In this document: positions 15,642 through 26,422 of the stretch, piece after piece
Layout of the letters: each line of letters opens with the position of its first letter
Position numbering within the stretch: the stretch's first letter is position 1
Assembly (NCBI GenBank): GCA_021791135.1
Contig: JAJYXD010000076.1
Span: forward strand, 1-26,422
Origin: a bacterium
GTDB taxonomy: Bacteria; Patescibacteriota; Minisyncoccia; UBA6257; GWB1-50-10
DNA length: 26,422 bases
Reading direction: 5' to 3'
Translations under genes and position numbers: made by a program
Notes under the pieces: generated by a model
What the model was told of the DNA's origin: nothing
Seen by the model: only the letters and a program-made list of their open reading frames with translations
Databases searched by the model: none

Positions 15642-16325
15642 GTGGTTGACTTAAAATTAGTAGAGCCGAAAGATTTTTGGTATGTGGTTGGTCTTATAGT
15701 CACTGATGGTAACCTAAGTAAGGATGGGAGACATATTGATATCACATCAAAAGAGATATCTCATCTTGAGAAGGTAGCGAACGCCTTATTTTTCAAAAAT
15801 CCCATTGCTTCAAAATACAGCGGAAGAAATAGAGAAAAGACTTATTTTCGTTTACAATTCAGCGATGCAAAGCTTTATAGATATTTGCAAAATATTGGTA
15901 TTACTCCTCGAAAATCACTAACGTTGCGCGATATTAAAATCAATGAAAGATATTTCAGAGATTTTCTAAGAGGGGTTATTGACGGAGATGGGTCGATCTG
16001 TGTATGGAAACATAGAACCAACGGACACCAGCAGTGGTCACTTAGAATAGTTTCTGCTGCACCAATATTCAGTAAGTGGATAAAGGAAGAAATAGAAACA
16101 CACTATAAAGTGAGGGGTCGATTGCATGTCCGCGCACATGATGAAAAGAGAAATAATCTTCATATAATAAAATTCGGAAAATTGGCAGCGAAGGTAATCT
16201 TATCTGATATATACTATAAAGGCGCGCTCTTTTTAGATTCGAAACACAAAAGACATTTAGAATGTTTACAAGATGAATCTAAAATGATTAAATACGGTGA
16301 AGTTCTAAGAGCCCGGGTGTCGTAA
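15642..16325 (+). CDS. Double-motif LAGLIDADG homing-endonuclease-like protein
   Basis: YVVGLIVTDGN and FLRGVIDGDGS motifs; AT-rich; ends 15 nt inside tRNA-Leu. Confidence 0.88.
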   Translation: MVDLKLVEPKDFWYVVGLIVTDGNLSKDGRHIDITSKEISHLEKVANALFFKNPIASKYSGRNREKTYFRLQFSDAKLYRYLQNIGITPRKSLTLRDIKINERYFRDFLRGVIDGDGSICVWKHRTNGHQQWSLRIVSAAPIFSKWIKEEIETHYKVRGRLHVRAHDEKRNNLHIIKFGKLAAKVILSDIYYKGALFLDSKHKRHLECLQDESKMIKYGEVLRARVS

Positions 16326-18763: not shown

Positions 18764-18867
18764 AAGACCTATTTATAACGAACTAAAGGCGAAAAAGTTT
18801 CTTGGCGGAGAGGGTGAGATTTGAACTCACGAAATCCTTTCGGATTTACCAATTTTCCCGCACAAAG

Positions 18868-18954
18868 CGGAAGGTGGAGGATTCGAACCTCCGAGAGAAT
18901 TTCTCCTCTACCGCATTTCAAGTGCGGCGCATTCGACCACTCTGCCAACCTTCC
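18868..18954 (-). tRNA. tRNA-Ser(TGA) nested inside the interrupted tRNA-Ser
   Basis: GGAAGGT/ACCTTCC acceptor, CCGCA-CT-TGA-AA-TGCGG, long variable arm, GGAGG-TTCGAAT-CCTCC, G73; no encoded CCA. Confidence 0.93.
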
Positions 18955-18970
18955 GCTTTGGGCGGGATTG

Positions 18971-19019
18971 CGATTTGTACCTAAAAATTCTACGTGAGCT
19001 TGAATTTTTAGACAAATCG
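18971..19019. repeat. 18-bp AT-rich hairpin with a 2-nt bulge inside the tRNA insertion
   Basis: CGATTTGT-ac-CTAAAAATTC-(11 nt)-GAATTTTTAG-ACAAATCG. Confidence 0.85.
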
Positions 19020-19065
19020 GGAACAAGACCGGCGCATTCGGCCGGGCTCTGCCACCTCTCCGTTG

Positions 19066-19138
19066 TGGACCGTATCGGGCTCGAACCGACGACCTCTTCG
19101 ATGCCATCGAAGCGCTCTACCAACTGAGCTAACGGCCC
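19066..19138 (-). tRNA. tRNA-Ala(GGC)
   Basis: GGGCCGT/ACGGTCC acceptor, CTTCG-AT-GGC-AT-CGAAG, GTCGG-TTCGAGC-CCGAT. Confidence 0.95.
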
Positions 19139-19815
19139 GCTATCACTTCTATTGCTTTCAGTATGTCATTTAAAACCCAAGACGAAAAGAAATCAATCCT
19201 GCAAACCCCTTTATATTCTGGCTTCCTAGATTTTTTACCTACTGTTCTTGGATCAATTCTCGCTTTGTAAAAGCTGCCAAGGGGGATCTTGGTAATACTG
19301 TGCCAATACTGTTCCAACTCTTTTACATTTTGGTCGGCTCTACATTGAACTGTACATCGGAATTTCGACTCATCAATTTTATAACACCTCCTGAAAAGTC
19401 CCAAAAACAACTTTATTACTCTAGGATTAGAATTCCCAAATGTGAGCGTACTGTGCTTAGGATTTTTTGTTCCCTCTCCTAAATAAAGAGTGATGAGAAC
19501 AAGTTTAGCAATATTATTATTCTTGAGTAAGCTCGCCAAATGCTTATTATCCTCAAACAGTTTTGCTAAGAAGCGGGCTCTTTTCTCTTCTCTCACTTTT
19601 TTTGCTTCTTCTCTCCCTTTTGCCATTTTTAGGTTCTGTCTTGTTTTCAAAGTAATTTTAAGTTTTCTTGATAACTCAAATTCTCCGAACCACAAAGATA
19701 GGGTGCTTTTAGGTATTTTGGTACCGAGATAACTATTTATCTCCGAGTAAGTTTTGCTGCTTGTACGCAGATTTATTGCTCTGCTTTTAAAGTGCGAGAA
19801 GTTAGAACGGGACAC
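19129..19815 (-). CDS. HTH plus single LAGLIDADG-like domain protein
   Basis: N-terminal HTH-like KTYSEINSYLGTKIPKSTLSLWF; LITLYLGEG motif, then LTFGNSNPRVIKLFL; likely GTG start at 19815; stop lies 10 nt inside tRNA-Ala. Confidence 0.72.
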   Translation of the reverse strand: MSRSNFSHFKSRAINLRTSSKTYSEINSYLGTKIPKSTLSLWFGEFELSRKLKITLKTRQNLKMAKGREEAKKVREEKRARFLAKLFEDNKHLASLLKNNNIAKLVLITLYLGEGTKNPKHSTLTFGNSNPRVIKLFLGLFRRCYKIDESKFRCTVQCRADQNVKELEQYWHSITKIPLGSFYKARIDPRTVGKKSRKPEYKGVCRIDFFSSWVLNDILKAIEVIAGR

Positions 19816-19821
19816 ATCTGA

Positions 19822-19850
19822 ATTGTACCCCCGGTTTACCCATGTCGCAA
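19822..19850 (-). promoter_or_regulatory. sigma70 promoter for the LAGLIDADG-like ORF
   Basis: TTGCGA-N17-TACAAT, 6 nt before GTG. Confidence 0.55.
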
Positions 19851-19879
19851 GCAACTCAACTGCCTTTCTATTCTTGGTG

Positions 19880-24229: not shown

Positions 24230-26422
24230 TTAGAGCACGAAATTAACGAGACGGTCTTTTACATATACTACCTTTTTCGGCGTTTTTCCTCCAATTATTT
24301 TATTCACCGCCGGATGCTGAAGTGCGAGCGCGCGTGCTTTATCTTCGTTTATGCCGCGTTCCGCCTCCACGGTTGCCCGATGCTTTCCATTTACCTGCAC
24401 CACGAGTGAAAACGTCTCCGCGACGATGAGACGGGCATCATACCGCGGCCAAGGACTTCGATGTATTGATTTTTTCTCTCCCGTTTCCGCCCACAGTTCC
24501 TCGGAGAGATAGGGAGCGAAAGGAGCAATAAGACACAAAAACATTTTATACTGCTCTTTCGTAACGCTCTTTGCCCCCTCAAATTTATTGAAAAGAATCA
24601 TGAGCGCGCTGATCGCCGTATTGTAATGGAGTGACTCTATGTCCTCGGTCACTTTCTTTACGGTGTAGTGGAGGAGCTGCTCAATCGACGGGTCTTTTTT
24701 ATTCGCAAACTTTCCTTTTAATGCTTCCTTGAACTTCCATATTCGATCAAGAAAACGCGTGATTCCCAGGATTCCCTGATCCCTAAAGTCACCTCCCTGC
24801 TCAAAGGGCGCAAGAAACATAAGATAGGTGCGGAACGCATCGGCGCCGAATTTTTTGATGTACTCGTCGGGATTCACCACATTTCCTTTCGATTTGGACA
24901 TCTTCGCGCCGTCCTTGATAAGCAGTCCGTGTGCCCTGAAGAGCGGGAACGGCTCTCCGGTCTTTGAGGGGAGGTTTAAAAGTTTCATATCACGAAGGGC
25001 GAGCGCGACAAACCGAACATAAAGAAGATGGAGTACCGAGTGCTCCGCTCCGCCGATATACATATTGACCGGCAGCCAGCGTTTCGCTCTTGATGCGGCG
25101 AGCGGTTCCTTTTTGTTTTTCGGATCGATATAACGAAGGTAGTACCACGCGGAATCGAGAAACGTGTCGGAAACGTCGGTTTCGCGGCGGGCTTTTCCTT
25201 TGCACCCGGGGCACCGCACCTCATAAAACGACTTTGCGGAGGCGAGCGGCGACTCGTCTTTTCCCTTCGGTCTAAAGTCCTTCACGAAAGGAAGTTTTAC
25301 GGGAAGATCTTTCTCCGGAACGGCGTACCATCCGGGCATTCCTTTCTGTTCTCCTTTTCCTTCTGCGGCGCACGCATCGCAGTGAATCATCGGAATCGGC
25401 GGACCCCAGTATCTTTGGCGCGAAATGAGCCAGTCGCGGAGACGATATTGTGTCGTGCGAACTCCTCCGACAAGTTTTGTAATTTCCCATTTCGCTTTTT
25501 CGGAGTCCATTCCGTCGAACTCTCTCGAATTCATGAGCACTCCACTTCCTTCATATAATTCGTCTTTTTCGCCGCCGGAAATGACTGCGCGGATCGGCAT
25601 ATCAAATTTCTTCGCAAACTCAAAATCGCGCTCATCATGCGCCGGTACGGCCATGATCGCGCCTGTACCATACCCAGAGAGTACATAGTCCGCAACAAAT
25701 ACCGGAATCTCTTCGTTGTTTGCGGGGTTAATTACTTTTATCCCTTTGAGTTCAACGCCAGTTTTTTCTTTATTCTCTATTCTTTGCTCTTCGGTTTTCT
25801 TTTCAGCCTTGCGTACATATTGCTCAACTTCGTCGTAATTTGAAATTTGAAATTTGAAATTTGAAATTAGGTTATGCTCCGGCGCCAAGACCATGTAGGT
25901 AGCACCGAAAAGCGTGTCGGGTCTTGTGGTAAAAACCTTTATTTTGGGGACAATTACATCCAGGAGTTCGGGGAACTCCTCCGTCTTCATGTCCTTTAGG
26001 GTAAAGTGCCCATTGTTCTTCAGGTTTATTAATTTACCACCAAGCTTTGTATGTACTTCCTGCACACTCCGGATAATATTCTTATTATCATTATCCGAAT
26101 AAAATAGTACGACTTCATTGAAGTACTTCTTAAGCGACGCATCGAACACAAAATCCTTCAGACCGCTTAATCTCAGATACTTTTCCGACTTAATGATCGA
26201 CGGGGCAACCAGAATCAATTTGTTCACTTTTCTCTTGTTCTCTGCGAGCCACCTTAGCAAGAACGCGGTTCCCGCACTATGACCCACGAGGATGGAATCT
26301 TCGTTAATTTCGTTTTTTTCAAAAACCTTTTTCCATTTGCCGTAATCAGGGATCCAATCCTCGGGATACAAATCATTGGATACCTCAATGCCACTCTTCT
26401 CCAAGCTCGCTTTAAGCCACGG
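24230..26422 (-). CDS. leuS: Leucine--tRNA ligase (5'-partial) with a fused RBBP9/YdeN-type alpha/beta hydrolase domain
   Basis: VFTTRPDTLFG, GYGTGAIMAVPAHDERD, LRDWLISRQRYWG, KMSKSKGN, VVQVNGK; frame stays open past the window edge; upstream segment has PWLK, LVGHSAG, YSDND, GHF. Confidence 0.95.
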   Translation of the reverse strand, partial: PWLKASLEKSGIEVSNDLYPEDWIPDYGKWKKVFEKNEINEDSILVGHSAGTAFLLRWLAENKRKVNKLILVAPSIIKSEKYLRLSGLKDFVFDASLKKYFNEVVLFYSDNDNKNIIRSVQEVHTKLGGKLINLKNNGHFTLKDMKTEEFPELLDVIVPKIKVFTTRPDTLFGATYMVLAPEHNLISNFKFQISNYDEVEQYVRKAEKKTEEQRIENKEKTGVELKGIKVINPANNEEIPVFVADYVLSGYGTGAIMAVPAHDERDFEFAKKFDMPIRAVISGGEKDELYEGSGVLMNSREFDGMDSEKAKWEITKLVGGVRTTQYRLRDWLISRQRYWGPPIPMIHCDACAAEGKGEQKGMPGWYAVPEKDLPVKLPFVKDFRPKGKDESPLASAKSFYEVRCPGCKGKARRETDVSDTFLDSAWYYLRYIDPKNKKEPLAASRAKRWLPVNMYIGGAEHSVLHLLYVRFVALALRDMKLLNLPSKTGEPFPLFRAHGLLIKDGAKMSKSKGNVVNPDEYIKKFGADAFRTYLMFLAPFEQGGDFRDQGILGITRFLDRIWKFKEALKGKFANKKDPSIEQLLHYTVKKVTEDIESLHYNTAISALMILFNKFEGAKSVTKEQYKMFLCLIAPFAPYLSEELWAETGEKKSIHRSPWPRYDARLIVAETFSLVVQVNGKHRATVEAERGINEDKARALALQHPAVNKIIGGKTPKKVVYVKDRLVNFVL
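25837..25868. repeat. Heptamer tandem repeat (AATTTGA)x4.5 inside leuS
   Basis: Encodes ISNFKFQISN in frame. Confidence 0.9.

Follow-up and report, generated by a model that had tools for sequence, protein, structure and literature searches.

We analysed a 26,422-nt stretch of DNA (hereafter the window; contig JAJYXD010000076.1) from a Patescibacteria genome (G000; 598 kb in 90 contigs, 87% complete), in which one serine tRNA gene lies inside another. On the minus strand, a tRNA-Ser(UGA) gene that follows a tRNA-Ala(GGC) gene is interrupted after position 35, in the anticodon loop and one base past TT, by an insert carrying a second, complete tRNA-Ser(UGA) gene. The junction reads CTTG|TTCCCG, with no target duplication. 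We refer to the interrupted gene as the outer gene, to the complete gene as the inner gene or cargo, and to the insert, which has no open reading frame (ORF) and whose non-tRNA part amounts to 81 nt, as the element. Its two stems are P1 and P2.

19138-19065, minus strand: tRNA-Ala(GGC), preceding the interrupted serine-type tRNA by 3-4 nt
19024-19061, minus strand: outer tRNA-Ser(UGA), 5' part, positions 1-35, ending in CTTG (from identity to the gene of genome G034 and the spacing after tRNA-Ala(GGC))
19023-18856, minus strand: insert of 168 nt, splitting the outer tRNA-Ser(UGA)
19020-19023, minus strand: left end of the element, the TTCC tail of a near-invariant TTCCCG (from comparison of family copies)
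18971-19019, minus strand: P1 hairpin, 18 bp, with an invariant 8-bp base (CGATTTGT/ACAAATCG), a variable apex and a 2-nt bulge (from folding and covariation)
18987-19015, minus strand: promoter-like site within P1 (TTGTCT, 17 nt, TAGAAT), directed at the inner tRNA (sigma-70-like match)
18968-18970, minus strand: CAA linker joining P1 to P2 (invariant in alignment A1)
18955-18967, minus strand: P2 5' strand, TCCCGCCCAAAGC, the last C of which pairs with G73 (from covariation)
18868-18954, minus strand: cargo, a complete tRNA-Ser(UGA) with no encoded CCA, presumed to be a working gene (ARAGORN; Rfam, 60.4 bits)
18856-18867, minus strand: P2 3' strand, which is also the right end of the element, CTTTGTGCGGGA (from covariation of its base with the P2 5' strand throughout the family)
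18803-18855, minus strand: outer tRNA-Ser(UGA), 3' part with encoded CCA (98% identity to the G034 gene over 48 nt)

Structure and boundaries of the nested tRNA genes

With the insert removed, the outer gene was 91% identical to the uninterrupted, syntenic tRNA-Ser(UGA) of G034, and the same 3-4 nt spacing after tRNA-Ala(GGC) was found in G034 and in the congener G002. The inner gene was called by both ARAGORN and Rfam and was 97% identical to the uninterrupted tRNA-Ser(UGA) of G002. The interrupted outer gene was missed by ARAGORN, as outer pseudogenes generally are by tRNA finders. Both junctions were spanned with 0 mismatches by unitigs from two studies, indicating that the nested arrangement did not arise as an assembly chimera. 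The same arrangement was present in contigs from four DNA runs, the other joints in which came from unrelated tRNA genes, and a search of these contigs for an allele without the insert or without the hairpin found none. A search for RNA runs containing the stretch returned none. A search for an allele lacking the hairpin alone, as proposed in an earlier interpretation made from the letters of the window (the sequence-only reading), likewise found none.

P2 comprises 13 positions (18967-18955 paired with 18868-18856), running from G73 of the inner tRNA through CTTTGTGCGGGA, and stacks on the inner acceptor stem. C18955 pairs with the discriminator G73, there is one C x T mismatch (18961 x 18862), and adding the 7-bp acceptor stem brings the helix to 19 bp in 20 positions. 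Unconstrained RNA and DNA folds both yielded P1 and P2; the RNA fold of the whole locus reached -115 kcal/mol (z = -7.8) and the DNA fold of the insert gave z = -8.1, with 0 of 200 shuffles as stable in either case. The folds thus reproduced the 18-bp bulged hairpin (19019-18971) and the extended helix with a C-T mismatch that the sequence-only reading had described, and the motifs on which it had relied, TTCCCG at 19023-19018 and CGGGAA at 18860-18855, are present. Its view that complementarity of this extent is not random is supported, and both stems show compensatory changes, described below.

Its assignment of bases to the outer gene had to be revised. The 'GGA of exon 2' said to be sequestered by the helix is not exon sequence: it is the last three bases of the 3' end of the element, GCGGGA, and the same end is found ahead of exon 2 in Val, Gly, Cys, Ala, Arg and Thr host genes. 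The GGA anticodon that was implicit for the outer gene is not supported: the uninterrupted ortholog in G034 reads CTTGAAA (UGA). A GGA reading of the window outer gene requires changed cuts on both sides; a separate tRNA-Ser(GGA) gene is present on contig C33 of G000. Across the family, eight outer genes regained the anticodon of their cargo only when cut at TTCCCG...GGGA, with no other offset and no duplication. When this boundary was applied to the window copy, the rejoined outer anticodon loop was 6 nt; with the cut shifted one base earlier, the rejoined loop read Ser(UGA).

The promoter-like site in P1 was the sole sigma-70-like match in 600 nt. The same arrangement occurred in 13 of 34 copies with sense-oriented cargo, against 1.8 expected, all in one P1 subfamily and hence not family-wide. 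We treat a promoter inside P1 that might drive the inner tRNA as a lead only.

Both stems are maintained by compensatory changes

We compared P1 and P2 across copies of the element. All 112 distinct P1 sequences folded as single hairpins. Among 17 cargo-less copies, 95.9% of P1 cells paired, 9 of 10 variable pairs had changed on both sides, and cells with double changes numbered 41 against 13 expected (0 of 500 shuffles as high); sliding the partner columns lowered pairing to 27-44%. For the 13 positions of P2 in 40 distinct cargo copies, 94% of cells paired, compared with 79% in shuffles, and there were 75 double-change cells against 22 expected (0 of 1000 shuffles as high). The P2 extension beside the tRNA alternates between AAAGC/GCTTT, ATGGC/GCCAT, ATTGC/GCAAT, ATAGC/GCTAT and others, and the -1:N73 pair was C:G in 22 copies, T:A in 8 and A:T in 7. 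P2 position 7, the site of the C-T mismatch in the window, was unpaired in 22 of 40 copies and is a family trait. Covariation among homologous loci had been suggested as a check on the extended pairing, and the pairing is kept, including both -1:N73 and the weak spot at the mismatch. The aligned copies are related by descent, so the shuffle counts overstate their independence; the variety of pair types is clear nonetheless. We conclude that both stems are maintained by compensatory changes. We also compared G:T with A:C cells as an indication of strand. In P2 these numbered 36 and 3 in copies with sense cargo, and 9 and 4 in copies with antisense cargo; P1 gave a mixed result, and whole cargo-less elements favoured the opposite strand. 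These results disagree with one another and are confounded by common descent.

Variation at the base of P2 bears on two proposals of the sequence-only reading. The base occurs as TCCGCC/GGCGGA and as TCCCC/GGGGA, with the 5' TTCCCG constant throughout, and TTCCCG is likewise unchanged in copies with the P2 strands TCCTG and TCCCA. The first proposal was a folding switch, in which the 3' CGGGA would pair by turns with the internal TCCCGC and with the 5' TTCCCG, thereby governing access of RNase P to the inner tRNA. Both pairings can be drawn in the window copy, and the -1:G73 pair that the switch invokes is real and conserved. However, changes at the 3' end match those in the internal strand (GGCGGA with TCCGCC, GGGGA with TCCCC) while the 5' end stays fixed, indicating that the alternative pairing is lost in those copies: the alternative helix shrinks to ~3 bp and P2 remains intact. 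Minimum-energy and centroid folds also use P2 alone. We therefore regard a switch as very improbable.

The second proposal was that a simpler TCCCGC...GCGGGA hairpin came first and that P1 was inserted into it later, creating TCCCG as a 5-bp target duplication. The two copies of TCCCG have diverged in the TCCGCC, TCCCC and TCCTG subfamilies, in which the 5' copy is constant, and both copies accompany the element to unrelated sites. The constancy of the 5' TTCCCG across P2 variants and targets indicates that both TCCCG copies belong to the element, one to its left end and the other to the 5' strand of P2, and a target duplication is rejected. Within a genome, P1 sequences are homogenised among elements with differing cargo, which hints that the left module may be exchangeable; against a later arrival, nearly every copy found by way of P1 has a P2 partner, and no site with P2 and cargo but no P1 was found for this family. 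A secondary origin of P1 is hardly credible on these grounds.

Distribution, targets and cargo of the element

The copies share one layout, consisting of TTCC, P1 (the invariant 8-bp base CGATTTGT/ACAAATCG and a free apex), CAA, and P2, whose base TCCCGC/GCGGGA forms the right end. The left end TTCCCG was kept in nearly all 115 copies whatever the target, with TTTCCG or TTACCG in a few; together with the P1 base, it was invariant in alignment A1. Of 96 genomes from the same bacterial family, 31 contained the left end and P1, and the exact core motif occurred in at least 117 contigs of a species-representative collection, nearly all of them from Patescibacteria. A 60-nt core with the invariant sequences TTCCCGATTTGT and ACAAATCGCAATCC recurs at unrelated targets in many Patescibacteria lineages. 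Targets beyond tRNA-Ser include tRNA-Val, Gly, Cys and Ala genes, 5S rRNA genes and intergenic DNA, and the 5' flanks include CTTG, TTTA, CTTC, ATTG, AATG, AATC and GGTT. The hairpin and the long helix in the window probably represent the conserved stem pair of a small mobile DNA element that is widespread among the ultra-small Patescibacteria. The left end and P1 were 93-95% identical between G000 and genomes G036, G009 and G062, from genera whose leucyl-tRNA synthetase (LeuRS) is only 65-70% identical to that of G000. Since the P1 apex varies freely across the phylum, identity of this order between distant genera points to recent horizontal spread of the family.

A search for other genomic copies of the hairpin, also suggested by the sequence-only reading, identified two more in G000 and many in relatives. 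Both further copies in G000 are cargo-less (C17:7746-7825 and C25:5589-5663). The copy on C25 lies antisense within a 5' fragment of a tRNA-Val gene, with an intact tRNA-Val(CAC) ~20 nt beyond. The copy on C17 (L002:1506-1585) has the P2 base TCCGC/GCGGA, sits in a spacer that separates two minus-strand genes and lies immediately upstream of an ORF that, judged by eye, begins like triose-phosphate isomerase; comparable spacer hits were seen in L143, L151, L203, L204 and L206, from other genera. In 5' fragments of 5S rRNA genes in L049 (G003) and L042 (G073), an antisense copy of the element interrupts a conserved CC|CATTCCGAAC site, with an intact 5S gene ~40 nt beyond the interrupted fragment; G073 has several stacked 5S fragments. 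Cargo-less copies thus occur in gene fragments beside an intact second copy (tRNA-Val(CAC) on C25, 5S rRNA in G003 and G073, and tRNA-Lys), and others occupy an intergenic spacer conserved among genera. Three further elements (x12, x25 and x98 in L093, L106 and L178) are inserted after GGCTATATG in a conserved, probably non-coding gene and hold ~75 nt of non-tRNA cargo in the P2 loop.

The P2 loop typically holds either a few nucleotides or one complete tRNA. The cargo types are Ser (UGA, GGA, CGA and GCU), Val UAC, Gly CCC, Arg GCG, Thr UGU, Cys GCA and Ala CGC; the Cys GCA, Ala CGC and some Ser CGA cargoes are inverted with respect to the element. Wherever the flanks could be interpreted, they proved to be remnants of the cargo's own isoacceptor and to share the orientation of the cargo. 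This holds for the window copy, in which the inner and outer genes are both Ser(UGA), and for a three-level Ser(UGA) nest on contig C43 of G036 (L004:1508-1870). There, a 95%-identical copy of the window element and its cargo has been hit in the cargo anticodon loop by a second element, which carries another tRNA-Ser(UGA); the D-arm of the middle tRNA is degraded. G000 contains a second tRNA-in-tRNA nest, at ~2315-2500 of contig C87, in which a perfect 13-bp inverted repeat (CCCCGTTAGATTT/AAATCTAACGGGG) brackets an intact tRNA-Val(UAC) (2348-2420) that lies in the D-loop of another tRNA-Val(UAC) with encoded CCA. This nest has no P1 hairpin, indicating a different element family.

We next consider the interrupted genes. 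After precise in-silico excision, only 13 of 46 outer genes were still tRNA-like and 33 were not, and the outer shells in multi-level nests were decayed. Our data show near-fixed ends, no target duplication, covariation in both stems, cognate cargo in the orientation of the gene it interrupts, and outer genes that have mostly decayed. At the position of the window nest, G034 has the outer-type tRNA-Ser(UGA) uninterrupted and G002 has the inner-type gene alone; no tRNA-Ser(UGA) adjoins tRNA-Ala(GGC) in the congener G001. The tRNA-Ser(UGA) genes of neighbouring genera (L028 in G027, L020 in G034 and L003 in G002) share only 62-75% identity, and that of G027 is a mosaic of segments of the window's outer type and inner type, as expected if nests are resolved by recombination between their homologous halves. 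The tRNA-Ser(CGA) gene looks the same in G000 and G002.

We consider it likely, from these comparisons, that positions 19023-18856 of the window (minus strand) represent a copy of a double-hairpin element that is conserved in Patescibacteria, is non-autonomous and acts by breaking and replacing genes. The best reading of the locus is that the element has broken an older tRNA-Ser(UGA), inactivating it, and that the cargo tRNA has taken over its function.

The intact minority of outer genes suits a different explanation, namely that the insert is a new class of bacterial tRNA intron. A Patescibacteria activity would recognise the three-way junction of the anticodon stem, P1 and P2, cut at both ends and ligate, a scheme that we think unlikely; equally unlikely is the corollary that one transcript would yield two tRNA-Ser(UGA) molecules, with the inner tRNA as a passenger released by RNase P and RNase Z. 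Between 8 and 13 of the 46 outer genes, or ~1/5 to 1/4, are intact after precise excision, and the window outer gene keeps its encoded CCA and has altered anticodon-stem pairs that are still G-U; conversely, the 33 outer genes that are no longer tRNA-like and the decayed shells of multi-level nests count against an intron. Compensatory changes keep both stems, and the invariant stem bases resemble a recognition module; they read identically in either orientation, so that an RNA-binding factor could see sense and antisense copies alike. Working splicing would, however, make replacement cargo unnecessary, copies without cargo are found in intergenic DNA and in gene remnants next to an intact second gene, no RtcB, EndA or ribozyme match was found, and with the family boundary the rejoined window loop has only 6 nt.

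Several observations weigh against the break-and-replace reading. The only motif common to the targets is a weak [A/T]-T-N just before the insertion point, so cognate targeting would have to be argued from selection or recombination, and the exact placement of a cognate tRNA in the P2 loop is unexplained by the model. In the window, the inner tRNA is native-like (97% identity to G002) and the outer gene resembles the allele of another genus (91% identity to G034); this would reverse the simplest expectation, unless G002 has resolved an ancestral nest. The window outer gene is nearly intact, and both substitutions on the 3' side of its anticodon stem leave G-U pairs. Three elements of G036 with ~95% identical P1 hold three different cargoes, which needs either cargo exchange or gene conversion of P1. 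Finally, no transposase, recombinase or nuclease was found to track the element.

Mobilisation, known systems and significance

We clustered 1431 ORFs around ~110 copies and found no neighbour protein in more than ~15 loci, no copy bearing an ORF and no recurrent neighbouring transposase. A Y1 transposase was rejected as the mobiliser: Y1_Tnp is missing in the element-bearing genomes G009, G073, G075, G068, G113, G090 and G106, and many Y1_Tnp-positive genomes are without the element. The one weak Y1_Tnp gene of G000 (234 aa) lies between glycosyltransferase genes with no element nearby. Homing by TnpB guide RNA was rejected in the same way, as no TnpB was found. Rfam gave no group I intron or ribozyme match, even with E up to 10, and G000, which is 87% complete, gave no match to EndA (PF01974) or RtcB (PF01139). 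RNase P RNA type A was likewise not detected in this 87% complete genome; RNase III is encoded.

Nuclease-like genes do occur near tRNA genes. In the window, an ORF at 15642-16325 (plus strand) with a LAGLIDADG_3 match (25.9 bits) is free-standing in a tRNA-tRNA spacer, and a second spacer ORF, at 19129-19854 (minus strand), has no Pfam match but is nuclease-like, with a LYLGEG motif and a 32%-identical homolog at the same position in L091. Elsewhere in G000, small GIY-YIG ORFs (86-90 aa; C89:7376-7582 and C83:2-157, in L215 and L216) adjoin tRNA-Gly(UCC) and tRNA-Gln(UUG), and similar 89-aa GIY-YIG ORFs lie near the element in 8 of ~110 loci. These free-standing genes may drive replacement of tRNA alleles; they are not constant partners of the element. 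The window also encodes a bacterial-type LeuRS and an HtrA-like protease; the LeuRS ORF (24230-26404, minus strand) has a Ser_hydrolase/alpha-beta hydrolase match at residues 31-138, N-terminal of the editing domain.

The presence of such genes raises the alternative that there is no dedicated element, and that breaks made in tRNA genes by homing endonucleases are repaired from foreign alleles, with quasi-palindromes kept by template switching. LAGLIDADG-like and GIY-YIG genes beside tRNA genes, in G000 and at some related loci, would fit this view, as would the heterogeneous tRNA-Ser(UGA) alleles that are mosaic between genera, and the C87 nest, which has a perfect 13-bp inverted repeat but no P1. 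Independent repair scars would nevertheless not be expected to share an identical 60-nt core (TTCCCGATTTGT and ACAAATCGCAATCC) at unrelated targets, template switching would erase the G-T wobble cells and the recurrent P2 position 7 mismatch that persist, and no nuclease gene is constantly adjoining. We find this explanation quite improbable.

Under the preferred reading of a mobile element that breaks and replaces tRNA genes, it would enter as DNA at loop sites of hairpin-forming RNA genes, mostly with TTN right before the insertion point. Copies in single-copy tRNA genes would survive only with a cognate tRNA aboard, and filled alleles could then spread by homologous recombination between relatives, possibly assisted by the LAGLIDADG-like and GIY-YIG genes beside tRNA genes. 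P2 would hold the two ends of the element adjacent whatever the cargo size, and would let the inner tRNA fold apart from the homologous outer halves, avoiding mispairing in the transcript. The paired leader should hinder RNase P, and RNase III could open P1 and P2 before end maturation.

A literature search returned no description of tRNA-in-tRNA nests or of a double-hairpin motif in Patescibacteria. Elements derived from IS200/IS605, including palindrome-associated transposable elements (PATEs) and the repetitive extragenic palindromes with their associated transposases (REP/RAYT), have asymmetric ends and subterminal hairpins, do not duplicate the target and insert just 3' of a short motif. 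The Patescibacteria element shares these features; it differs in having no fixed tetra- or pentanucleotide target, in not following Y1, in the lack of TnpB, and in a second hairpin that holds a whole gene. Classification as an IS200/IS605-type PATE was rejected for want of Y1 (TnpA) co-occurrence and of a fixed insertion motif. A miniature inverted-repeat transposable element (MITE), a cut-down DDE transposon, was also rejected: the symmetry is limited to 5 nt (TCCCG/CGGGA), there is no target-site duplication at restorable sites, and there is no transposase-bearing relative.

Integrative elements aimed at tRNA genes span kilobases, carry an integrase gene and restore the end of the target gene by duplicating a partial tRNA 3' or 5' part. 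They resemble the Patescibacteria element in that the inserted DNA compensates for damage to an essential tRNA gene, but the insert described here is 168 bp, has no integrase ORF and brings a complete second tRNA. Archaeal bulge-helix-bulge tRNA introns and bacterial group I tRNA introns lie in or near the anticodon loop and have ends joined by a helix. Insertion in the anticodon loop and a helix that brings the ends together are common to both; in the present case there is no EndA/RtcB or group I match, and the outer genes decay. A group I intron was rejected because no ribozyme core match was obtained, and bulge-helix-bulge geometry was not noticed in the window insert, without a formal test. 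Homing endonucleases in tRNA clusters, such as SegB of phage T4, likewise make tRNA clusters a setting for selfish DNA and for the replacement of alleles, but no nuclease lies within the Patescibacteria element or is constantly linked to it.

The closest architectural likeness is to double-hairpin elements (DHEs), short, non-coding mitochondrial double hairpins of Allomyces, other chytrids and Schizosaccharomyces (Paquin et al. 2000, cited in PMC10085805). DHEs are described as lying between genes and within rRNA genes, as near-identical between species, and as having no known mobility enzyme. The two adjacent hairpins, short length, lack of coding capacity, dispersal and conservation between species are shared, in architecture only, and a relationship in sequence is not expected. 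DHEs differ in being GC-rich, organellar and free of cargo, and no gene replacement or cognate anticodon-loop preference is described for them.

If the break-and-replace reading is correct, an enzyme-free, structured module of 60 nt has colonised tRNA and 5S rRNA genes across much of the Patescibacteria. The family can be recognised in annotation by its core motif, and the invariant stem bases offer concrete bait for a mobilising enzyme. The reading would explain the strong divergence of tRNA-Ser(UGA) between neighbouring genera (62-75% identity), the outer pseudogenes missed by tRNA finders, and the crowding of homing-endonuclease-like genes at tRNA loci in these genomes. A spare tRNA copy carried by the element would avert the lethality of hitting single-copy tRNA genes. 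This would constitute a third route by which DNA persists in essential RNA genes, beside splicing, as in introns, and end-restoration, as in integrative elements.

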